Assembly (NCBI GenBank): GCA_963667175.2
Contig: CAXXXF010000015.1
Span: 608,001 to 672,000 of the forward strand
Origin: Candidatus Latescibacterota bacterium
GTDB taxonomy: Bacteria > Latescibacterota > UBA2968 > GCA-2709665
DNA: 64,000 bases
Direction of reading: 5' to 3'
Positions 7,805 through 60,340 of the stretch are shown here, piece by piece; within the stretch, counting starts at the first letter, position 1, and every line of letters starts with the position of its first letter. The notes beneath the pieces were generated by a model. That model worked only from the letters and a program-made list of their open reading frames with translations. It searched no databases and was not told the origin of the DNA. A program made the translations under genes and the position numbers.

Positions 7805-9013
7805 TCAGTTCACGGCTTTCTTTTCCCCGTCTCCAAAATCGGGCACGGCCGTTAACGCGCCACCGTTCATCGCGGACTGGTGCGCGATCAGCCCCGGAAC
7901 CAGGTACCGCGCCGCCTGCCAAACGCTGTTCGGCGGCGTTTCGCCCGTCACACACGCAGTCACGAAATCGTGTACCAGAAACTGGTGGGCGCCCTTGTGC
8001 CCGTTGCTCAGGCCGATAAATTCTCTCGGCAGGAGATGGACAGGATGCACTCGCGACACGCCCTGGTGCGTGCCGTCGTCCCCCGTCACCGCGCCCATCG
8101 GGTCGTCGGCAGGGCCGGCCGGCACGCCCTCGCAGGACAATTCCGCGGTCAGGTCCACGCAGGTCTTCCGGTCCTTGTTGATCCACACCTGACCGCCCAC
8201 CTGCTCCTCGTAACCGGCGTCCGTTCCATACAGACTCATCCCGACCGTGCCGGGATGTCCGATCCGGCGGAACTCGTTGAAGCGCGCCACGCTCCCGTCC
8301 GACATCCTGCACAACATGGTTTCGTTGCTGAACGGGTTCTTCCAGACATTGTCCTCGCGCGCATACAGATTGTCTTCATGGCGATCGACGAAGCCCATGC
8401 CGCTCACGCGCGTGGCATGCGCTCCTGTAACCGAAACGATCATACTTGTCGAATGCGTCGGATAAAACATAGGGGGCGACCCGAAATACCGCTTCCACTC
8501 TTCGCCGTGGCGCCACTGGGACACCGCGTACAGTCCGTGGGAGTAATCGTGGCAATACTCCGCCTCCCCGTACACGATATGGCCGAAGTCTCCCTTCCGA
8601 AAGCGGTCGCGGCAGTAGATCGTACACGGGTAATAGTAACTCGTCTCCCCGATCATATACGTCAACCCCGTCTCCTCCACGGCCTTGACGAGATCGGATA
8701 TTTCCTCCAGGCTGACGGCTGACGGCACCGCGGAATACACGTGCTTGCCGCTGCGCAGCGCCTGTACCGCCTGCGGCCCATGCAGGTGATGCTGGGTGAT
8801 GATCGCGATCGCGTCCACGTCGGATTCACACAGCGCATCAAGCGACAGATAGGTGTCCGGCACGTCGAAGCGCGCCGATTTCTCGGCCAGTTTCCTCGCG
8901 TCCAGATCCGACAGCACCAGGTGGTCCACGTCCGGATGCGCTTTGAAGAGCGGGATGAACGAATTTGCAAACGCTCCGGTTCCGCAGATCCCTAGACGGA
9001 TACCCATCTTCAC
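7805..9013 (-). CDS. Gfo/Idh/MocA family oxidoreductase
   Basis: Rossmann GICGTGAF and ALRSGKHVYSAVP. Confidence 0.88.
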   Translation of the reverse strand: MKMGIRLGICGTGAFANSFIPLFKAHPDVDHLVLSDLDARKLAEKSARFDVPDTYLSLDALCESDVDAIAIITQHHLHGPQAVQALRSGKHVYSAVPSAVSLEEISDLVKAVEETGLTYMIGETSYYYPCTIYCRDRFRKGDFGHIVYGEAEYCHDYSHGLYAVSQWRHGEEWKRYFGSPPMFYPTHSTSMIVSVTGAHATRVSGMGFVDRHEDNLYAREDNVWKNPFSNETMLCRMSDGSVARFNEFRRIGHPGTVGMSLYGTDAGYEEQVGGQVWINKDRKTCVDLTAELSCEGVPAGPADDPMGAVTGDDGTHQGVSRVHPVHLLPREFIGLSNGHKGAHQFLVHDFVTACVTGETPPNSVWQAARYLVPGLIAHQSAMNGGALTAVPDFGDGEKKAVN

Positions 9014-9030: not shown

Positions 9031-9412
9031 CTCACACGAAGGCACAAAGACTCAAAGGAAACCATCGAAACGCGGGCAACCACAAGGGTTGCCCCTACAG
9101 ATACAAAAAGGAAACGTGCGGACGAAGTTTCCGCGCTATAAGGTACAACGTCAATTTAGTTTCGAACATCGCCAGGTGCTATCCAGCGGACGGTCGTGGA
9201 GTGCGGGGTTTTTCCGTGCTATTCCGTCTGGCAACATCGCTCGGGATGGGCTGGTCAGGTGACAGGGCGCCCAACCTCCATCTGCGCCACTGAGGTGGTT
9301 CACGGAAAAACCGGCCCCGCGGCGTTTGAGCGGCCTGCCTGCGCCTGCCTGGCCGGCAGGCAGGCGCCGTTCTTTTTGGTCCTTTTTCTTGGGCGTACAA
9401 GAAAAAGGACTT
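9031..9412 (-). repeat. Composite modular repeat, copy 1 (inverted relative to the 49.5 and 53.4 kb copies)
   Basis: Contains the CTT(T/C)GTGT-type array (9031-9057, reversed), a REP-like hairpin (9074-9098) and a ~220-bp segment nearly matching the reverse complement of 53640-53860. Confidence 0.85.
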
Positions 9413-9684
9413 AAATAAATAAAAATAATAGGTTTATTCGAAATTTATCGACGTTTCCGTTGAGATACGTACCATTCGCCATTACCGTCTCTACCCTGTC
9501 ATCAACGTTAAACGATAAGAAATACCCGAATAGCGTAATGCGCAAGCCAGAAAACCTTTCGCCCGGTAAGCCGGTCAGCTGAATCGGCCGCCAATGCGGA
9601 AGCAGGGCTTCGCTGTGGCGCACCTGTTGATTCTTGAACACCGGACCCGCATTTCGTAAATTGTCCCTATCGAAAGGAGGCGCT

Positions 9685-25212: not shown

Positions 25213-25239
25213 GCCGAACGAACCTCCCGTGCCACCTAT

Positions 25240-25298
25240 CAGCCCGTTGATAAAGTCCATCCGGGCTGCCTGCCTGTGCGTTCGCACGCAGACAGGCG
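25240..25298 (-). mobile_element. MITE fragment (one end) carrying a CCTGCCTG hairpin insert
   Basis: Begins CAGCCCGTTGATAAAGTCCATCCGG, the reverse complement of the right end of the 27268-27427 element. Confidence 0.75.
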
Positions 25299-26305: not shown

Positions 26306-27265
26306 TCATTGCAAATGCTTCCTTACTTCGTCCAGCAACGTCCGTTTCGCCTCGTCTATGCGCTTTTCAATCCTGCAGCCCGAGGCCCGCGTGTGCCCGC
26401 CTCCGCCAAACGCCGCCGCGACGCGGTTCACATCGACTGCGCCGCGAGAACGAAGGCTGACGCGGAACCGTCCCGGGGCCTCTTCCTTGAAAAACAACGC
26501 CGCCTGAATCCCGTCGATCGCCATCGCGTGGTCTACCACAGGATCCGGATCGCCGCCCTTGCGGTACGTTTCGTGGTCCACAACGAGTGTGCTCACTCGA
26601 GCGTCGAAATGAAGTTCCAGGGTACTTAAGGCGGCCGCCAGCGTCACCATGGTCTGGTAACTCTCCCGGGCAAACAGCGCATCGGCGATCGCCTCCGGGT
26701 TGGCGCCGAATTCCGCCAGTTCGCCGCAGACCTTTAACGCCCGTTCCGGATGGGAAACCCTGAAAAGCTTGGTATCGAACGCGATTCCCGTGTAAATCTG
26801 GGTGGCGACCGCCGGATTGATTGCCGTTCCGGCAGCCCGAAGCAGTCCATAGACCAGTTCGCTGGCGGAACTAGCCGAACGGTCCACGATGCGGACGTCG
26901 CCCTCCGGCTTGCGGAAAGCGTGATGATCGATGATCATCGTGCGTGCGTCCTCACGGAGAAGGCGCCCCACGTCGCCCACTCGTTGCGGGTCCAGCGTTG
27001 GCGTGTCCACCAATACCGCCCGGCCAAACGCCGGCGGATCCACAAGCGACCTGTACAGTTCAATATGGTTAAATCCCGGCAGAAAAGCAAATTTCGGATT
27101 CAACGTCTCATCGCTGACGACGAGTCGGCACGCCCGCTCTTTCTGGACGAGCATTTCCCTCAACGCCAGCAGGCATCCAATCCCATCCCCGTCTGCATTG
27201 ACGTGGGTTGAGACCAGATACGGTTCGTCGGGGTCGAAAAAGGACAACGCCGCGGTATAGTCCAT
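26306..27265 (-). CDS. nrnA: DHH/DHHA1 phosphoesterase (oligoribonuclease/pAp phosphatase)
   Basis: HVNADGD, IIDHH, VSLRS and GGGGH. Confidence 0.9.
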   Translation of the reverse strand: MDYTAALSFFDPDEPYLVSTHVNADGDGIGCLLALREMLVQKERACRLVVSDETLNPKFAFLPGFNHIELYRSLVDPPAFGRAVLVDTPTLDPQRVGDVGRLLREDARTMIIDHHAFRKPEGDVRIVDRSASSASELVYGLLRAAGTAINPAVATQIYTGIAFDTKLFRVSHPERALKVCGELAEFGANPEAIADALFARESYQTMVTLAAALSTLELHFDARVSTLVVDHETYRKGGDPDPVVDHAMAIDGIQAALFFKEEAPGRFRVSLRSRGAVDVNRVAAAFGGGGHTRASGCRIEKRIDEAKRTLLDEVRKHLQ

Positions 27266-27267
27266 AG

Positions 27268-27427
27268 CAGTCCGTTGAAAAAGTCGCTCTGCAGGCGAGG
27301 CCGAGTCATTGTGGCCGAAGACAAGGCGCGCGACCGACGCGAATCCCTGGATTCGGGGAGGGAGCGCAACGCCGTATTTCGGTCACAAGGGCCGGACGCA
27401 GACCGGATGGACTTTATCAACGGGCTG
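27268..27427 (+). mobile_element. Complete 160-bp MITE with 18-bp TIRs and 6-bp target duplication
   Basis: TIRs CAGTCCGTTGAAAAAGTC / GACTTTATCAACGGGCTG (16/18 match), flanked on both sides by CCATAG (27262-27267 and 27428-27433). Confidence 0.88.
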
Positions 27428-30265: not shown

Positions 30266-30334
30266 CGGTCGCGCGCCTTGTCTTCGGCCACAATGACTCG
30301 GCCTCGCCTGCAGAGCGACTTTATAAACGGACTG
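30266..30334 (-). mobile_element. MITE fragment (other end)
   Basis: Nearly identical to the reverse complement of 27268-27336. Confidence 0.8.
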
Positions 30335-30418
30335 TTAGCTGACGGCCCGCGCATCGTATGGTTCCAAATGAACCGCCCAGGAAAAAGACTGCCGGAAGTC
30401 GGCCGGGAATATATGCGC

Positions 30419-43709: not shown

Positions 43710-45119
43710 TCAGGCCGACGAGAACTGCTGGACCGTGTTCTGGATGCGGCTGACAAGCGCCTCGAAATCGGGATCGGCAGAAAGCCTGGTGGCGATATTT
43801 TTGCATGCGTGAATGACGGTTGTGTGATCACGATTTCCGAATTCAGTGCCGATTGACTTGAGGGGCGCCTCCGTAAGCCGTCTGCAAAGGTACATGCAGA
43901 TGTGCCGAGCCGTGGCGATATCCTGCTTTCGGGTGGAACCCGTCAGCATTGCCACGGGGATGTTAAAGAAGCCGGCCGTTCCCTTCTGGATCTCCTCGAT
44001 GCTGATTGCGGGTGACGCGATGGCATTGGCGCGACCCATACTCTTTATGGTATGTCTGGCGATATCGAGGGAAACGGGAGCGCCTTTATATACCGAAAAA
44101 GTAATGAGATGGGTCAGGGCGCCTTCCAGTTCCCGGATATTCGAATCTACCTGTTCGGCCATGAAACGCGCGACGTCGGGGGGGATCCTGACGCCATGGC
44201 TTCCCGCCTTCTGATTGACGATTGCCATTCGGGTTTCCAGATCCGGTCGGTCGATATCCGAAACAAGCCCCCACTGAAACCTTGAAATCAGTCTGTCTTC
44301 AAATCCTTTCAGGGTTGACGGCGGCCGGTCGGAACTCAGGACGATCTGTTTGTTGAGTTGATACAGTGCGTTGAAGGTGTGAATGAGCTGGCGCTGGCAG
44401 GCTTCGGTCGTTGCGTGGAACTGAATGTCGTCGATGAGAAGAATGTCGGCGTTTCGATAAATCTCGGTAAATGCGGATGAATCCTTTTTTTGGATGGCTT
44501 TCAAATAGTCGGTAAAAAACCTCTCGCCCGTCGTATACACAACGCGCCCGGCCGTGTTGTTGCGAACGCAATGGTCGGCGATCGCCTGGAGCAAGTGCGT
44601 TTTCCCGAGGCCCACGCCGCTATAGATGAACAGCGGGTTGTAGGACGTTGTGCCGGGCGACTCCGCGACGGATTTCGCCGCAGTGTATGAGAACTGATTG
44701 CTCTCGCCAACGACGAAGTCTTCAAACCGATATCTGGGATTCAGCGGAAAAACGGCTTCGGATACAACGGCGGGAACGGGGTCTTCCCTGTTTGGCTGAA
44801 GATTCGGCGGAGGCGGGGAAGCGTCGGCCATGGTGAAGTCGGGTGGCGACCCCGATGCGGACCGGATGTCTTTCTTGATGGCAAACCGAATTTCCGGCGT
44901 CCAGGAAGTGATTTCTTCTATTACAGACTTGATTAAATGGAGCCAATGTTCTTCAAGCCAGTCTCCGAAAAAGGAAGTTGGCGCTTCAATAACCGCCAAC
45001 TCCGCGTCCAGTCGTGGTGACAATGTCTCGGCGAACCATGTACTGTAGGCATCCGCCTCGATTTTCCCCTCGATTTTCCGCAGACACCTGCCCCAGAGGA
45101 CGGAAGGATTTTCAACCAT
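43710..45119 (-). CDS. dnaA: Chromosomal replication initiator
   Basis: YNPLFIYSGVGLGKTHL, LLIDDIQF, RLISRF.WGL, NIRELEGAL and RDHTTV. An alternative start lies at 45137. Confidence 0.98.
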   Translation of the reverse strand: MVENPSVLWGRCLRKIEGKIEADAYSTWFAETLSPRLDAELAVIEAPTSFFGDWLEEHWLHLIKSVIEEITSWTPEIRFAIKKDIRSASGSPPDFTMADASPPPPNLQPNREDPVPAVVSEAVFPLNPRYRFEDFVVGESNQFSYTAAKSVAESPGTTSYNPLFIYSGVGLGKTHLLQAIADHCVRNNTAGRVVYTTGERFFTDYLKAIQKKDSSAFTEIYRNADILLIDDIQFHATTEACQRQLIHTFNALYQLNKQIVLSSDRPPSTLKGFEDRLISRFQWGLVSDIDRPDLETRMAIVNQKAGSHGVRIPPDVARFMAEQVDSNIRELEGALTHLITFSVYKGAPVSLDIARHTIKSMGRANAIASPAISIEEIQKGTAGFFNIPVAMLTGSTRKQDIATARHICMYLCRRLTEAPLKSIGTEFGNRDHTTVIHACKNIATRLSADPDFEALVSRIQNTVQQFSSA

Positions 45120-48091: not shown

Positions 48092-49447
48092 ATGAGGCCA
48101 TCGGACCGCGATACCATTGTCGCAATCGCCACCGGTCCCGGCGAGGCAGCGATCGGCATCGTGCGGCTTACAGGACCGGAGGCGGTGGAAATCGCCTCCG
48201 GTTTCTTTTGTGGATCCCTTGCATTAAACCGCGTTGAGGACCGCCGCCTGACGTATGGAAGGTTTGTGGTCGGTGACGAGGTCCTGGACGAGGTCCTGGT
48301 CGCCGTCATGAGGGGTTCCCGGTCGTTTACGGGCGAAGACACGGTCGAGTTCAACTGCCACGGCGGCCCTCTTCTTCTGCGGCGGGCGATGGAGGCGATG
48401 GTCTCGGCGGGCGCGCGTCCCGCCGAGCCGGGCGAATTCACGCGGCGGGCGTTTCTCAACGGCCGAATCGACCTCACCCAGGCGGAAGCGATTTCTGATT
48501 TGATCACCGCCCGGGCCGACCGGGGTCTTCGGTCGGCCTATTTCCAGTTGCGCGGCGGGTTGAGGGCCCGGTTCGAAGATCTGGCGGAGGCCCTGCGGGA
48601 TTCGCTGACGTTGCTTGAGGCGGGACTGGATTTTTACGAAGACGCGGACGTCGAGCAGGACGCCGTACGTCCGTCGATTGTGCGGGCGGCGGAGGAAATC
48701 GAGCGGCTGATCGCCTCCTATCAACACGGAAAAATCATACGCGAGGGTGCCCTCGTGGCCCTCGCCGGCCCCCCGAACGCCGGCAAATCGAGCCTGCTCA
48801 ACCGGCTGCTGGAAGAGGACCGCGCCATCGTCTCGCCGGTTTCCGGCACCACGCGGGATACGATCGAAGAGTCGATCACGCTGGACGGCATTCGCGTCAC
48901 GCTGGTCGACACGGCCGGGATTGCGAAGCCGCGTGACGACGTTGAGCGAGAAGGCGCGCGACGGTCGCGAAGGGCGATTGCCCGGGCCGGCCTTGTGCTC
49001 CTGATCGTGGACGGGTCCGTCCCCGCGGCCGCCGGGCTGGAGGCGATGGTTGAGGGCGTGACGCCCGGAAACGTGCTTCTCGTCAAGAACAAGAAGGACC
49101 TCGGCCTCCACGCCGACTGGCGGAGGGGCCACGTGTTTCAGGATCTCTCCACCTCCGCCCTCACGGGGGAGGGCCTCGACAGCCTCAGGAAACGGATCCG
49201 CGGGCGCGTGATTGCGGCATCCGATCCCGAACCCGGCGTGGTAACGCACGCGCGGCACGTGGAGGCGTTGCGGCGGGCGGGAGACGCGCTCGGCCGGGCA
49301 ACCGGGGCGCTTGGCGAGCGACTTCCCGGAGAGGTGGTGGCGATGGAACTGCGCGAGGCAACCGCCGCGCTGGGCGAGATTGTCGGCGAGACCACGTCGG
49401 AGGACATCCTGGACCGGATTTTCAGTACTTTCTGTATAGGCAAATAG
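48092..49447 (+). CDS. mnmE: tRNA modification GTPase MnmE
   Basis: DTIVAIAT, GEFTRRAFLNG, GPPNAGKSS, GTTRD, DTAG and FCIGK. Confidence 0.98.
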   Translation: MRPSDRDTIVAIATGPGEAAIGIVRLTGPEAVEIASGFFCGSLALNRVEDRRLTYGRFVVGDEVLDEVLVAVMRGSRSFTGEDTVEFNCHGGPLLLRRAMEAMVSAGARPAEPGEFTRRAFLNGRIDLTQAEAISDLITARADRGLRSAYFQLRGGLRARFEDLAEALRDSLTLLEAGLDFYEDADVEQDAVRPSIVRAAEEIERLIASYQHGKIIREGALVALAGPPNAGKSSLLNRLLEEDRAIVSPVSGTTRDTIEESITLDGIRVTLVDTAGIAKPRDDVEREGARRSRRAIARAGLVLLIVDGSVPAAAGLEAMVEGVTPGNVLLVKNKKDLGLHADWRRGHVFQDLSTSALTGEGLDSLRKRIRGRVIAASDPEPGVVTHARHVEALRRAGDALGRATGALGERLPGEVVAMELREATAALGEIVGETTSEDILDRIFSTFCIGK

Positions 49448-49449
49448 CC

Positions 49450-50320
49450 AAAAGGCGGTGAGACGTGAGACGGTAGACGAGTTGGTACGCCTGCGGTTTA
49501 TCCATTGCGTCCTGAGAGGTCGCCTGTCGGTGGAAAAACACCCACTGGAACAGCGTTCCGGGCGGTCCCAAACTTCACATCTCTAATTTACTTTTTTCTT
49601 CTTCGTCCTTATTTCTTATCCGCCGTAAGAAAAAGGACCAAAAAGAAGCGCGCCTGTCTGCCGGCCAGGCAGGCCGCTCAAACGCCGCGGGCTGCTTTTC
49701 CGCGAATCGCCTTTGTGGAAGGAACGAGAGCCGTTGGCCTGAAACCCTTGCAGGCGTTCCCGGACGACGTTGCTGGACGGACTCGCGCGGAAAAGCCCCT
49801 TCACCACCACCATTCGCTTGATAGGATCCCGCGGAGATCCGATAGAGATGTCCTTATACGACGGAGCGCTTACAGCCCCCCAACACCCCCACCAACCTAC
49901 CCCCTATCCCCCTTCCCGGGGGGAAGGGGGAACGGCGAGGGGTCGATGGACTGGGCATGCAGATGTGCCGGGCTGGCGATTTCCTGTCAATCAGAAGTAT
50001 CTATAGATGACCGGCACGCGATGCCTGTCTTTTCTCCCCCTCTCCTCACAGGAGAGGGGGCAGGGGGGAGAGGTCTGCGGGGCTGGGGGTGGTTCGCTCC
50101 TGGCTGACTGCTGGTTTGGTTTTCTTTGTGTCTTCGTGTCTTTGTGTGAGCTGATTTTCGCTTCAAGCTGACGGCTGAAAGCTGATCGCTGCTTGTCGAC
50201 GGCAGGGAATTTGGGGCGATGTGGATGTGGAAGTTGATTTTAGCTGATTGCTTTGGTTTTCTTTGTGTCTTCGTGTCTTCGTGTGAGCGGTTTTCATTTT
50301 TGCTATAAGCTGACAGCTGG
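49450..50320 (+). repeat. Composite modular repeat, copy 2
   Basis: 49521-49690 is nearly identical to 53550-53742, and the modules continue in the same order as in 53430-54342. Confidence 0.88.
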
Positions 50321-50336
50321 TGTTCCACGTGAAACA
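50321..50336. promoter_or_regulatory. parS: parS centromere-like site
   Basis: TGTTCCACGTGAAACA matches the TGTTNCACGTGAAACA consensus and is origin-proximal. Confidence 0.92.
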
Positions 50337-50393
50337 TGGCATCCAATACAAGGAATCGGCGCGTTGCTTCCGGCGGACGCGTACGGAGGAACG

Positions 50394-51038
50394 GTGACGG
50401 ATCGGGAATTCCTGACGGCCGCTGAAGCGCTGTCCGTCCCTCTGTCTGAAGAACAGGCCTCGCTGTTTGTTCGATATGAGGCGTTGCTCCGGTCGTGGGC
50501 CGAACGGGTGAGACTGGTGTCCCGGGGAGACCGGGACAGGATCAGGGAGCGCCACTTTATCGAGAGTCTGCGGGTGGTTCGCTTTCTTCCGGGAGGGCCG
50601 ATTTCGCTCCTGGACCTGGGATCGGGCGCGGGTTTTCCCGGTGTTCCGGTCAAAATCGCCCGGCCGGAAGTGGACATCGTGCTCCTGGAATCGACAAGAA
50701 TGAAGGCGCTCTTCCTGAAACGCCTGGTCGGTGAACTCGAAATGGACGGGCTGTCCGTTTTGCCCGAGCGTGCGGAGGTTGCCTGCGAACGCGACGAACT
50801 TCGCGGGAGGTTCGATATTGTAACTGCGCGAGCCGTGGGTTCGCTGCGGGACCTGTGGCGCCTGTCGTCAGGCTTCCTCAGGAAGGGTGGCGAGCTGTTT
50901 GCGATCAAGGGCCCCGGCGCACGCCGGGAGGCGGATGGATTCGGCGCCGATGGCCCGGTCGTGACCATCGAAGCCGGGGCGTCAGGTGTCCGGCGAAGGG
51001 ACACGGTTCTTGTCAGGGCTTCCGCCCGGCGCGAGTGA
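50394..51038 (+). CDS. rsmG: 16S rRNA m7G527 methyltransferase
   Basis: GTG after GGAGG. RHFIESL, LDLGSGAGFPG, RAE and VTARAV. Confidence 0.95.
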   Translation: MTDREFLTAAEALSVPLSEEQASLFVRYEALLRSWAERVRLVSRGDRDRIRERHFIESLRVVRFLPGGPISLLDLGSGAGFPGVPVKIARPEVDIVLLESTRMKALFLKRLVGELEMDGLSVLPERAEVACERDELRGRFDIVTARAVGSLRDLWRLSSGFLRKGGELFAIKGPGARREADGFGADGPVVTIEAGASGVRRRDTVLVRASARRE

Positions 51039-51439: not shown

Positions 51440-53296
51440 TTACCCTCCCGGCCTGTAGGATCCAAAAGCCGAACGCAGCCTGTCCGATATCTCGCCAACC
51501 GTGGCGCCGGCCAATCCGGCCGCCACGACCGCTTCCGTAATCGACCCCGCGCGCCGCGCCCGCCGTTCGACGTTGTCCAGCGCAGCCTGCAGGGCGTCGG
51601 AATCCCGCAGGCCCCGCGCCCGCGCCAGGCCCAGTTTCTGATTGTGTTCCGAGTCCTGTGTGGGCTGGAACGTCGAAACCGGCGCGTCCGGATCGCCCCG
51701 AAACCGGTTCACCCCCACCACGACGGTCTCGCCGGATTCGATCTTCTTTTGCGCATCGTATGCCGAGTCCGCGATACAGGCCGCCGTAAAGCCGTTTGCG
51801 GCCGCCTGCCCCGCCCCGCCCTCCCGGTCCACCGCCTCCAGTACGGCCATGGCTTCCTCCTCCAGCCTATCGGTCATTTTTTCGACCGCGTACGACCCCC
51901 CCATGGGATCGACGGTATCCGGGATGCCGCTTTCGTAGGCCAGGATTTGCTGGGTGCGTACCGCGAGTTGCGCTCCGGTATCCGACGGCAGGCCCAGCGC
52001 TTCATCGTACGCGTTGACGTGCAATGACTGGGCGCCGCCCAGAACGGCGGCCAACGCCTGCAGGGTGGTCCGCGCGCAGTTGTTCATCGGCTGCTGGGCC
52101 GTGAGGGTCGAGCCGGCGGTCTGGGCGTGGAATCTCAGGCGCCTGCAGCGCGGGTCTCCCACGCCCAGGCGTTCCTGTACGAGGCGGCTCCAGAGTCGCC
52201 TGGCCGCGCGGAATTTGGCGATTTCCTCCAGAAAATGGTTGTGAACGCCGTAAAAAAAGGAGAATTTCGGGAGGAATCGCTCGGGCTCGAGGCCGGCCGC
52301 GCTGGCGGCGTCGGCATACGACAGGGCGTGGGCGAGCGTAAAGCCAAGTTCCTGTGCGGCGGTTGCGCCGGCCTCCCTCATGTGGTAACCGCTGACGCTG
52401 ATTGGATTCCATTTTGGCGCCTCCCTGAGACAATAGTCCATCAGATCGACCACGAGACGCATCGAGTCGGCAATTGGAAAGACATATGTTCCACGTGAAA
52501 CATACTCCTTGAGAATATCATTCTGGACCGTTCCGGTAAGCGCCCGCGCAGGCAGTCCGCGCTTCTTTCCGAGGCCCGCGTAGAACGCGAACAGGATGCA
52601 GGCCGTCGCGTTGATCGTCATCGATGTGCTGATGCGGTCCAGCGGGATTCCATCGAACAGGGCATCCAGGTCCCAGAGGCCGTCTACCGCCACGCCCACC
52701 CGGCCCACCTCGCCGTCGGCGTCGGGATGGTCCGAGTCGTAACCCATCTGGGTGGGCAGGTCGAACGCCACGCTCAAGCCGGTCTGACCCCGGGCAAGCA
52801 GATCGCGAAACCGGGCGTTGGTTTCCGCGGGGGTGGAAAATCCCGCGTACTGGCGGAAGGTCCAGAGGCGGCCGCGATACATGGAGGGATAGGCGCCGCG
52901 GGTGAAAGGGGGTTCGCCCGCGCGTCCGATCCGGTCGGGGACGTCGTCGCCGTTTCCGCCTCCCCTGACCCCTGACCCCACGGAACGTTGTTCGCTATCG
53001 ACGTCGCCGTTGCGCTTTTCCGCGCTTTCGGCGGGGTCGGCAAGTAGTCCCGTCATCCGGTCGAACAGGCGCCTGGCTTCTGCCGAAGTGGCGCGCTGCC
53101 TGTAGGCCTGTAACAGGAGCGTATTGGAGTCCAGGTCAAGGGCGGCCGCCAGGTCCAGGCATCGCTTGTCCGAAGGAATTCGCTTTCCACTCTCGATCTG
53201 TCCGATATAGGTACCCCAGACACCGATCTTTTCACCCAGCCCATGCTGGCTGAACCTGCCCTGGCGCGCCTCCCTGATCAAATCGCCGAAATCCAT
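51440..53296 (-). CDS. XRE-family HTH fused to methylmalonyl-CoA mutase large (substrate-binding) subunit
   Basis: AAGGAGG RBS. N-terminal LIREARQ..SQHGLGEKIGVWGTYIGQIESGKRIPS, then PFTRG...WTFRQYAGF, GLSVAFDLPTQMGYDSD, QNDILKEY and ISVSGYHMREAG. No B12-binding DxHxxG domain. Confidence 0.88.
   Translation of the reverse strand: MDFGDLIREARQGRFSQHGLGEKIGVWGTYIGQIESGKRIPSDKRCLDLAAALDLDSNTLLLQAYRQRATSAEARRLFDRMTGLLADPAESAEKRNGDVDSEQRSVGSGVRGGGNGDDVPDRIGRAGEPPFTRGAYPSMYRGRLWTFRQYAGFSTPAETNARFRDLLARGQTGLSVAFDLPTQMGYDSDHPDADGEVGRVGVAVDGLWDLDALFDGIPLDRISTSMTINATACILFAFYAGLGKKRGLPARALTGTVQNDILKEYVSRGTYVFPIADSMRLVVDLMDYCLREAPKWNPISVSGYHMREAGATAAQELGFTLAHALSYADAASAAGLEPERFLPKFSFFYGVHNHFLEEIAKFRAARRLWSRLVQERLGVGDPRCRRLRFHAQTAGSTLTAQQPMNNCARTTLQALAAVLGGAQSLHVNAYDEALGLPSDTGAQLAVRTQQILAYESGIPDTVDPMGGSYAVEKMTDRLEEEAMAVLEAVDREGGAGQAAANGFTAACIADSAYDAQKKIESGETVVVGVNRFRGDPDAPVSTFQPTQDSEHNQKLGLARARGLRDSDALQAALDNVERRARRAGSITEAVVAAGLAGATVGEISDRLRSAFGSYRPGG
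52487..52502. promoter_or_regulatory. parS: parS site inside the mutase CDS
   Basis: TGTTCCACGTGAAACA, identical to 50321-50336. Confidence 0.85.
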
Positions 53297-53429
53297 CACC
53301 GAAGCCTCCTTCCGGAATCGCGGGACCGGATAATGCGAGCGCAACGCCGCAACCGGATCCACACACGCTTGTGTGTGTGGAGACAAAACATAAAAACCTG
53401 TTTTTAAATCCGCTTATAAAATCCGAAAA

Positions 53430-54342
53430 GCGGGGAGGCGTGAGACGCAAGACGGTAGAGAAAAACCCTGAAAGCGGTGAGACGGGAGAGGCCAGTCGGT
53501 AGACGAAACGACCCGCTGGTTCCGGTCTGCCTATAGCATCCTGACAGGGCGCCTGTCGGTGGAAAAACACCCACTGGAACGGCGTTCCGGGCGGTCCCAA
53601 ACTTCACATCTCTAATTTACTTTTTTTCTTCTTCGTCCTTATTTCTTGTCCGCGTAAGAAAAAGGACCAAAAAGAAGCGCGCCTGCCTGCCGAGCAGGCT
53701 TCGGCCTGTCTGCCGGCCAGGCAGGCCGCTCAAACGCCGCGGGGCCGGTTTTTCCGTGAACCACCTCAGTGGTAACAATGGAAATATGCTGCCCTGTCAC
53801 CGGACCAGCCCTGCCGGAACTATGTTGCTGGACGGACTTGCACGGAAAAACCCCCAGCCACACCACAGTACGCTTGATGGGGCCTCACAAGAAACCGTAC
53901 GCGGATGTTCCTGCGCGCTGGAGCGTTTAAAGACTCACCAACACCCCAACCAACCTACCCCCTATCCCCCTTCCCGGGGGGAGAGGTCTGCGTAAAACCG
54001 GTGAGACGTGAGACGCAAGACGGTAGAGGAAAACGTCACCACAGTGTTTTCACATTAACCGTTCCTGTTTTTTCCTTTATCGTAACGACGAGAAAAACTA
54101 TCGGGCACTCATATCGTCTCCCGTCTCCCCTCTCACCGCCTTTAGGGAATTTGGGGAGATGTGGACGTTGAATTTTATTCTTGGTTTTGATTCTAACTGA
54201 CGGCTGAATTCCGGTTTGTTGGGGCAACCCTTGTGGTTGCCCTCCTTTCGCGTGTTTCCGGGTTTCCTTTGTGTCTTTGTGTCTCCGTGTGAGCTGATTT
54301 TCGCTTCAAGCCGACTGCTGAACGCCGATGGCTGAAAGCTGC
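53430..54342 (+). repeat. Composite modular repeat, copy 3
   Basis: Shares long blocks with 49450-50320, with 9031-9412 (inverted) and with 55661-56095. Confidence 0.88.
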
Positions 54343-55203: not shown

Positions 55204-55293
55204 ATGACGGTTACCTTTCCTGAGTGGGATGGCGTTGTCCTGCGGGACAGCGCGCGAAGGATAACATGCCGGCCGAAACCTGTCAAGGGATAA

Positions 55294-55399
55294 CAGTCCG
55301 TTGGAAAAGTCGCTCCGTTGGCGAGGCCACATGGGCCGGACGCCTGTCTGGGTGCGAACGCACAGGCAGGCAGCCCGGATGGACTTTATTGACGTGCTG
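55294..55399 (+). mobile_element. Internally deleted MITE copy with hairpin insert
   Basis: Ends CAGTCCGTTGGAAAAGTC / GACTTTATTGACGTGCTG match the 27268-27427 element. Confidence 0.78.
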
Positions 55400-55443
55400 A
55401 CAGGCGCGACGAGACGGGCCGTATCCGGTGTCCGAACGATAAG

Positions 55444-55660: not shown

Positions 55661-56095
55661 TGAAAGCGGTGAGACGTCAGACGTGAGACGGTAGATGACA
55701 TCCTTGCCTGGTTGGTTTCTCCTTTATGCCTGCGGCAAGAGATGATACCGAACATGGCAATAAAAGCAGTGAGACCTAAGACGGTAGATGAAAGACCTTG
55801 TCACCCAATGCGGCGCGAAGTCAAAAAGGGAAAGCGCCGGAACGCCATGTTAGACCATGTGGCCATGATCTTGAGATTTACACAACAGTGTTTCGAGGTT
55901 ACCCGTGCCGAGTTTTTCGCCCTCTTCGTTACGGCCAGGAAACCTGGCGGGCACTCATGTCCTCTACCCTCTCCCGTCTCACCGCCTTTCGGTTGTTTCC
56001 GGGACTCCTTTGTGTCTTCGTGTCTCCGTGTGAGCCGATTGTCGCTCTTGTTTCAAGCTGACCGCTGACGGCTGAATGCTGACAGCTGTTTTTTG
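55661..56095 (+). repeat. Composite modular repeat, partial copy 4
   Basis: AAAGCGGTGAGACG... / ...CGTCTCACCGCCTTT inverted ends, a core similar to 54040-54143, then the CTTYGTGT and GCTGANN arrays. Confidence 0.8.
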
Positions 56096-60204: not shown

Positions 60205-60340
60205 CGGGGCCGGGGGGAGAGGTTGCTTCTGCCTGATTGCAGCCAGGTTCTCTTTGTGTCTTCGTGTCTTTGTGTGAGCCGATTGTGATTTTCGCTCTGC
60301 GCTGACGGCTGATAGCTGACAGCTGTTTTGGCTGATGACT
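60205..60340 (+). repeat. Composite modular repeat, short partial copy 5
   Basis: GGGGCCGGGGGGAGAGG, CTTTGTGTCTTCGTGTCTTTGTGTGAG (60252-60278) and GCTGACGGCTGATAGCTGACAGCTG. Confidence 0.8.

Follow-up and report, generated by a model that had tools for sequence, protein, structure and literature searches.

A family of dispersed non-coding intergenic units in Latescibacterota, with a covarying long-range stem and a downstream terminator

The window analysed here is a stretch of 64,000 nucleotides of the Latescibacterota genome G000, corresponding to positions 608001–672000 of contig C15. It contains dnaA (44259–44744, minus strand), mnmE (48092–49447) and rsmG (50253–51038). The proximity of dnaA to mnmE and rsmG makes it probable that the window covers the origin region; the minimum of the cumulative GC skew of contig C15 lies near 790 kb, about 140 kb from dnaA. 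The longest frame for methylmalonyl-CoA mutase, at 51440–53386 (minus strand), has an N-terminal helix-turn-helix match (HTH_3) at residues 37–86, ahead of the mutase domain; this may be a genuine fusion or the result of a start called too far upstream. Three stretches of the window are copies of one structured repeat, the parts of which are as follows.

9188–9328, plus strand: copy 1, subfamily A; match to covariance model R1 at 146.4 bits, with the stem present in the MFE fold
9207–9218 and 9301–9312, plus strand: 5′ arm and 3′ arm of copy 1, enclosing a loop of 82 nt, with a G-rich leader before them and a tail behind
9341–9377, plus strand: terminator of copy 1, an 11-pair GC hairpin (9341–9367) followed by CGTTCTTTTT, from the terminator scan
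9378–9410, plus strand: second hairpin of copy 1 (GGTCCTTTTTCTT...AAGAAAAAGGAC), from sequence reading and repeat pairs I4 and I5
49679–49815, minus strand: copy 2, the flagged copy, subfamily B; match to R1 at 119.9 bits, clustering with the B copies on the tree
49786–49796 and 49694–49704, minus strand: 5′ arm and 3′ arm of copy 2, enclosing a loop of 81 nt
49605–49674, minus strand: terminator module of copy 2, from sequence reading and the direct repeats D10, D11 and D13 with copy 3; GC hairpin at 49652–49674, T-tract (an A-run on the plus strand) at 49638–49648 and second hairpin at 49605–49638
53731–53871, minus strand: copy 3, subfamily A; match to R1 at 142.2 bits, from the model match and the sequence
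53841–53852 and 53747–53758, minus strand: 5′ arm and 3′ arm of copy 3, enclosing a loop of 82 nt
53635–53726, minus strand: terminator module of copy 3, with GC hairpins at 53704–53726 and 53681–53699, a T-tract and a second hairpin at 53635–53667

The orientation of copy 1 is opposite to that of copies 2 and 3. The arms of copies 1 and 3 are GGTTTTTCCGTG/CACGGAAAAACC, and those of copy 2 are GCTTTTCCGCG/CGCGGAAAAGC. The first-pass annotation had flagged the copy at 49694–49796 for two pairs changed on both arms relative to the copies at 9207–9312 and 53747–53852, and the change can be read directly: two U-A stem pairs have become C-G. The interior lengths that it gave for the three copies, 82, 82 and 81 nt, are confirmed. 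Its description of an interior with one conserved end and strong variation elsewhere stands for the conserved end, TCCGTCYRGCAACRT being present in all three copies; the variation was overstated, as AGGSCA and CUGAGG..UUC are also conserved. The flagged copy belongs to a separate subfamily (B) from the other two copies of the window (A).

In the three-way alignment, the similarity reaches well past the arms, into the G-rich leader on one side and the tail on the other. Beyond the tail come one or two hairpins rich in GC, then a run of TTCTTTTT and the second hairpin, an intrinsic-terminator layout on the strand of copy 1. For copy 3, the terminator scan called a 7-pair hairpin at 53699–53681 plus GCGCTTCTTT. 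The terminator of copy 2 was missed by the strict scan because 4 nt separate its stem from the T-run. The second hairpin of copy 1 is part of a terminator cassette that is also found without the core elsewhere. This cassette (GC hairpin, TTCTTTTT and GGTCCTTTTTCTT..AAGAAAAAGGAC) stands alone in G000 at about 748.1k, 356.1k and 90.5k of contig C15 and about 314.8k of contig C3. It also occurs without the core at many sites in the relatives G013, G015 and G016, with dozens of near-identical copies in some relatives.

A BLAST and regular-expression search of the whole 5.5-Mb genome returned ten full copies, six of subfamily A and four of subfamily B, and eight of the ten are located on contig C15. 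A truncated subfamily-B copy is present at about 320.5k of the same contig; it retains the leader, the 5′ arm and some 40 nt of loop before unrelated repeat DNA takes over. In a DNA search of 40 relatives, the core was present in all 14 other genomes of the genus. Covariance model R1 was built on an alignment of 70 sequences, namely 60 copies from relatives together with the own-genome copies. Among 150 sampled genomes of the phylum, with at most 21 candidates scored in each, a number that many of them reached, R1 matched 18 of 18 from the same family, 4 of 30 from a sister family and none of 102 from 12 other families; these genomes are a sample of their groups, several are incomplete, and related copies are not independent observations. 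Deeper scoring of five genomes, with 150 candidates in each, gave at least 48, 4, 8, 53 and 24 copies, which are lower bounds. By genus, the element is present in g1, g2, g3, g7 and g10 and missing in g6, g8 and g9.

Among the sampled genomes, the family is restricted to two families of one Latescibacterota order. At gathering score, Rfam 15 recorded nothing in the whole window except one tRNA. Permissive Rfam scans (E up to 10) around copies 1 and 2 gave only chance hairpin matches, far below gathering score. The Latescibacterota are uncultured, and a full-text literature search found no publication on repeats or non-coding RNA in this phylum. The three stretches are members of an undescribed family of dispersed non-coding intergenic units.

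The stem consists of 11–14 pairs and closes a loop of about 80 nt. In the RNAalifold consensus of 70 copies, this long-range helix alone is predicted; 98.9% of the stem cells of that alignment are paired, with two-sided changes at three pairs. Across 102 copies from 18 genomes in five genera, 98.4% of 1397 stem cells form standard pairs, and two-sided changes are found at 7 of the 14 stem pairs, in 107 cells. The 102-copy alignment was fitted to R1, a procedure which favours structure, and the 70-row MAFFT alignment agrees with it. When the 3′ partner was slid by 1–3 columns as a control, pairing fell to 42–70% and at most two pairs had two-sided changes. A candidate helix extending the stem, CCGUC with GGUGG, was rejected, being 54–93% paired with no two-sided changes.

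The changes were placed on a tree built from the non-stem columns, which has SH-aLRT support only, many unresolved forks and few columns for its number of rows. On this tree the state changes five times at pair 37/125, four times at pair 29/133 and twice at pair 36/126. The C-G state at 37/125 occurs in the B clade, in the orthologous copies L069 and L059 (SH-aLRT 100), and in L076/L055, L056 and L053. One U-G (L063) and one C-A (L052) intermediate are present. The further genera add G-C to A-U switches at two places: the pair adjacent to the U-run, and the innermost pair, where G-U intermediates also occur. The repeated two-sided changes, together with pairing far above that of the slid controls, show that the stem is maintained by selection for complementarity. 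The flagged covariation thus persists beyond chance with more copies. Of the proposal that RNA or ssDNA structure is under selection, the pairing of the stem is well supported, at the level of either RNA or ssDNA.

The orientation of the unit is fixed by its terminator. A terminator-like hairpin with a T-run, the hairpin having a median of −18 kcal/mol, lies downstream in 94 of 101 copies, compared with 15 of 101 when the same rule is applied at the mirror position on the other strand. The rule called for a hairpin of −9 kcal/mol or lower, at most 130 nt downstream, ending within 6 nt of an 8-nt window that starts with T and holds at least six T. A stricter first definition undercounted, giving 34 of 101 against 17 in the mirror control. 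From copy to copy the terminator hairpin varies widely in sequence, and covariation is seen at its base. Direction can also be sought in the mismatches of the stem, as G-U/U-G cells on the terminator strand number 8 against 2 A-C/C-A cells in the 10-pair core and 18 against 10 over all pairs, an asymmetry that is small and whose cells are not independent. The terminator is a stronger argument for the direction of reading than this weak asymmetry.

A promoter scan found no sigma-70-type sites at the three window copies. No shared promoter motif was found upstream of the copies, where the sequence is of several types, and a TATCAA-like motif at −32 to −34 is present in only 18 of 101 copies. Seven of the eight copies on contig C15, and all eight in G020, lie on the same strand. 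In G000, G007, G009 and G015, the points at which copy orientation switches were not consistently aligned with dnaA or GC skew.

The length of the loop is close to constant. Of 73 copies from the home genus, 49 have a loop of 82 nt and 20 a loop of 81 nt. For the four other genera the figures are 81 nt in 7 of 7 copies, 80 nt in 9 of 10, 79 nt in 6 of 6 and 78–80 nt in 6 of 6. The fixed interior length first noticed in three copies is thereby borne out at 78–83 nt across five genera. Three motifs are kept across the genera: UUCCGUYY-GC after the 5′ arm, AGGSCA in the middle of the loop and CUGAGG..UUC before the 3′ arm.

The loop neither folds stably nor codes for protein. It is no more stable than shuffled sequence (mean z of −0.07 for the strand with the terminator and −0.04 for its complement), and three sub-blocks, taken on both strands, have z of +0.1 to +0.6, with no excess stability. 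Stability therefore gives no sign of a folded functional RNA domain. The whole units of the three window copies have z of −1.6, −0.4 and +1.5, and their loops fold differently from one another. Mutual-information and stacked-pair or helix scans of the alignments returned the stem and the terminator as the only covarying helices, and no pseudoknot. The loop motif UCCGU can pair with the 3′ arm in nearly all copies, and both sides of this pairing are invariant. By eye, a short hairpin of some kind follows the first loop motif in each genus, which may be no more than chance.

A small protein gene on the opposite strand, in a frame opening at a GTG in the arm, is a further rival reading, and 40 of 55 subfamily-A copies are free of stops over the first 36 codons. 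Column entropy is, however, flat over the codon positions (0.795, 0.791 and 0.731), and 15 of the 55 copies have stops or shifted frames. In subfamily B the frame is shifted by one base, which places the conserved nucleotides in another frame. No ribosome-binding site was seen by eye. The coding reading was rejected on the flat entropy, the stops and the subfamily-B shift, and is scarcely credible.

The first-pass annotation also suggested that the interior could act as cargo or guide. Trans-acting small RNAs, with a variable loop of fixed length pairing with targets, would fit a largely unstructured loop with a terminator behind it and several loop subfamilies in one genome. Against the genome, the loops of the ten own copies had no match longer than 17 nt (13–17 nt, best E of 0.018, about chance for 5.5 Mb). 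Nothing in phage and plasmid collections matched the whole element (window positions 9150–9430) at E ≤ 0.01. Loop sequences group by subfamily on the tree and are similar within a subfamily. As the variation follows subfamily descent, it is not focused on one hypervariable block, and the loop has conserved motifs. The flanking genes are unrelated and no associated effector gene is known. A guide or cargo function is unlikely on these grounds, and the earlier suggestion is left unsupported. A more elaborate version, in which tens of small-RNA genes per genome would load an exact-length loop of about 80 nt on a dedicated putative protein, is decidedly improbable. The loop subfamilies would then form a specificity library of an RNA-guided or RNA-scaffolded system peculiar to this Latescibacterota order.

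The genes beside the ten own copies encode heparinase II/III, methylmalonyl-CoA mutase, MnmE/RsmG, oxidoreductases, among them a GFO/IDH/MocA member, an ABC transporter, a Kelch protein and proteins of no recognised kind. The downstream gene is co-oriented in seven of the ten and convergent in three, and the flagged copy lies antisense between mnmE and rsmG. These contexts bear on a reading as a cis-acting leader, similar to a riboswitch or attenuator, in which the stem would act as the helix that closes a sensor, with the terminator as its expression platform. The layout of closing helix, conserved loop nucleotides and terminator is in keeping with it, as are the seven co-oriented genes; in copies that do not have the extra GC hairpin, pairing is also possible between the leader and the 5′ half of the terminator. 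This antiterminator-like pairing of leader and tail shows no covariation, however, and the leader is absent in two genera. A cis-acting role also sits badly with downstream genes of unrelated function, with three convergent genes and an antisense copy, and with at least 53 copies in one genome. The cis-leader reading is very improbable, and close to refuted by the gene contexts.

Comparison of orthologous spacers indicates that the units are not fixed in place. In the mnmE–rsmG spacer, the element is present in 5 of 12 orthologues (the window and 4 of 11 relatives), always antisense to mnmE and as different subfamilies. Of the seven spacers without it, at least five (L099, L102, L103, L105 and L108) are built of other small repeats. 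The oxidoreductase/heparinase spacer of copy 1 contains the element in 3 of 14 genomes, as three different subfamilies. At this site G013 and G007 differ by a clean indel: about 210 nt, beginning with the 5′ arm and ending shortly after the terminator, are present in G007 and missing in G013. The indel lies between similar G-rich segments of 7–9 nt, and a deletion between short repeats fits as well as an insertion. In the orthologous pair L069 and L059, the core is identical at 135 of 141 positions, the terminator modules have been swapped and the upstream DNA is unrelated. Over four orthologous pairs, the core differs at 0–6 of about 141 positions and the sequence beyond the terminator at 3–22 of about 80–150 aligned positions, so that the core is as conserved as the flanks or more so. 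Units are gained and lost at orthologous spacers, where they also exchange subfamily and terminator modules, and they form mosaics with other small repeats.

Such turnover is better explained by a mobile element acting at the level of DNA, and this is the serious rival. In such an element the arms would be terminal or sub-terminal inverted repeats, or an ssDNA hairpin, recognised by a transposase or recombinase; the covariation would result from that recognition or from ssDNA pairing. Presence or absence at orthologous sites, different subfamilies at one site, the clean 210-nt indel between short G-rich direct repeats and copy numbers ranging from at least 4 to at least 53 are all consistent with it. 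In the most distant genus, the R1 match extends from arm to arm only (positions 21–126) and the upstream flank is not conserved. A loop with no stable fold is also compatible, and G-T is the least bad mismatch in DNA as well.

Other observations fit this reading less well. Conservation in the home genus runs past both arms, into a 20-nt leader on one side and the tail and terminator on the other, and in all genera the 3′ boundary is found downstream of the terminator. In the G000 assembly, which is 95% complete, A-type arm words are present at the six A copies and at two other sites, and the B-type words have about 6–7 further single hits each. Subfamilies A and B, with different arms, share one genome, which pairing explains more simply than one enzyme reading a sequence. 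The Y1 transposase (PF01797) has no match in 7 of the 14 genus genomes and weak partial matches in the other seven, although the element is present in all 14; in genomes without the element, this transposase family is abundant. The strict link of the terminator to one strand would be left unexplained. A DNA-level element is possible rather than probable, and it is not exclusive with a reading as RNA.

Several other repeats share the intergenic DNA of the window. A GTAG-headed REP-like hairpin, TGTAGGGGCAACCCTTGTGGTTGCCC, forms a separate module at 9057–9099 and 54217–54259 (repeat pair I6). It is often found about 110 nt upstream of the element, and occurs also in the relatives' spacers L101, L103, L104, L107, L153 and L163. 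A further repeat, with the arms AAAGGCGGTGAGACGTGAGACGGTAGACG / CGTCT..CGTCTCACCGCCTTT (D1, I7, I8 and I12), is present at 49441–49491, 53426–53510, 53994–54034, 54114–54153, 55662–55702 and 55960–55998. In relatives, its two arms flank a segment of about 110 nt in the mnmE–rsmG spacer of L099, L102, L103, L105 and L108, and the repeat looks like a separate inverted-repeat element.

A repeat of 72–74 nt occurs in both orientations (I2, I3, I9 and I10) at 25225–25298, 27265–27336, 30266–30337 and 55291–55414. The 72-nt inverted repeats at 27.3 and 30.3 kb, 2.9 kb apart, were considered as the ends of an insertion sequence; this was rejected, as they flank a methyltransferase and a SurA-like gene. 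Downstream of mnmE in two relatives (L100 and L106), a long insert that starts with GTGCGCC...GAAAAGGCGCGGA stands in place of the usual spacer; judged by eye, this start is similar to that of a group II intron at its 5′ end. Simple-sequence spacer modules, CTTTGTGTCTTCGTGTCTTTGTGTGAGC and heptamer runs of the GCTGACGGCTGA / CAGCTATCAGC type (D2, D3, D6 and D8), are present in the window and in relatives; in the window they lie at 50112–50334, 54255–54334, 55996–56081, 60240–60325 and 8692–8722.

The reading preferred here is that the family consists of dispersed, terminator-coupled intergenic units, with a stem selected for pairing, which would be transcribed toward the terminator and would present the loop as a platform. 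A probability of roughly 0.55 is given to this reading as a whole. An RNA reading in the terminator direction is the most economical because it accounts at once for the compensatory changes, a loop of exact length and a terminator that is nearly always present, and the dispersed modular unit is probably transcribed. The product may be a small RNA of about 190–230 nt or the end of a neighbour's transcript. In such an RNA, the stem would clamp a mostly single-stranded loop, whose motifs, at fixed spacing, may form a platform to which a protein or a second RNA binds. Spread may occur by recombination between shared modules or through a putative enzyme acting in trans. Against this transcribed unit stand the missing shared promoter, the small wobble asymmetry and a loop no more stable than its shuffles. 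High and variable copy number with presence and absence fits a selfish DNA repeat equally well.

The family combines two sets of features in one repeat. It behaves like mobile DNA in its variable copy number, its turnover at fixed spacers and its module swapping, and it has the marks of a selected nucleic-acid structure in its compensatory changes, its exact loop length in five genera and its near-obligate terminator. Should the family be transcribed, it would add to each genome tens of RNA modules with terminators that shape transcript ends near housekeeping genes, including those of the dnaA–mnmE–rsmG region. If it is a DNA element, a mobilising activity other than the Y1 transposase is implied. 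Under either reading, model R1 can be used by annotators for masking or labelling sites.

Of the known systems, the bacterial interspersed mosaic elements and REP clusters (BIME/REP) of enterobacteria and pseudomonads are among the closest. REPs are palindromes of 20–40 nt with a GTAG head, associated with the RAYT (Y1) transposase. The Latescibacterota units are similar to these in having many intergenic copies in mosaics with small modules, in gain, loss and module swapping, and in a frequent location at transcript ends. They differ in their 100-nt stem-closed loop with a non-palindromic interior.

ERIC/IRU, Correia (CREE), RUP and BOX elements are imperfect palindromes over their full length, or are bounded by long terminal inverted repeats and defined target duplications. 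They too are multi-copy, lineage-restricted, structured repeats of about 100–150 nt; they are transcribed with their neighbours, and some have terminators or promoters. In the present units, only 11–14 bp pair, the 80-nt interior is not self-complementary and conservation continues beyond the arms. MITEs differ likewise, as the inverted repeats here are not at the ends of the unit, with the 20-nt leader and the tail and terminator conserved outside the arms in the home genus. In genus g10, the 5′ border of the element coincides with the arm and the 3′ border lies after the terminator. Integron attC sites were compared by eye: the opposite strand has a conserved GTTGCTG, which is at odds with GTTRRRY, and the copies lie dispersed among housekeeping genes.

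Among RNA systems, the Qrr, csRNA and Yfr2-type families number from a few to about ten copies, which lie at fixed loci and share a recognisable promoter. The present units resemble them as short non-coding units, each with its own intrinsic terminator, with several diverged paralogues per genome, and differ in the copy number of at least 53 in one genome, the absence of a shared promoter motif and the presence or absence at orthologous sites. The intrinsic terminator on the RNA strand (94 of 101, against 15 of 101 in the mirror control) is a feature shared with stand-alone small-RNA genes. Riboswitches and other cis-leaders differ in their conserved position upstream of functionally related genes, which the units do not have. 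The element is of the general kind of BIME/REP, ERIC, Correia and BOX, and it departs from each of these families in the defining features that were tested.
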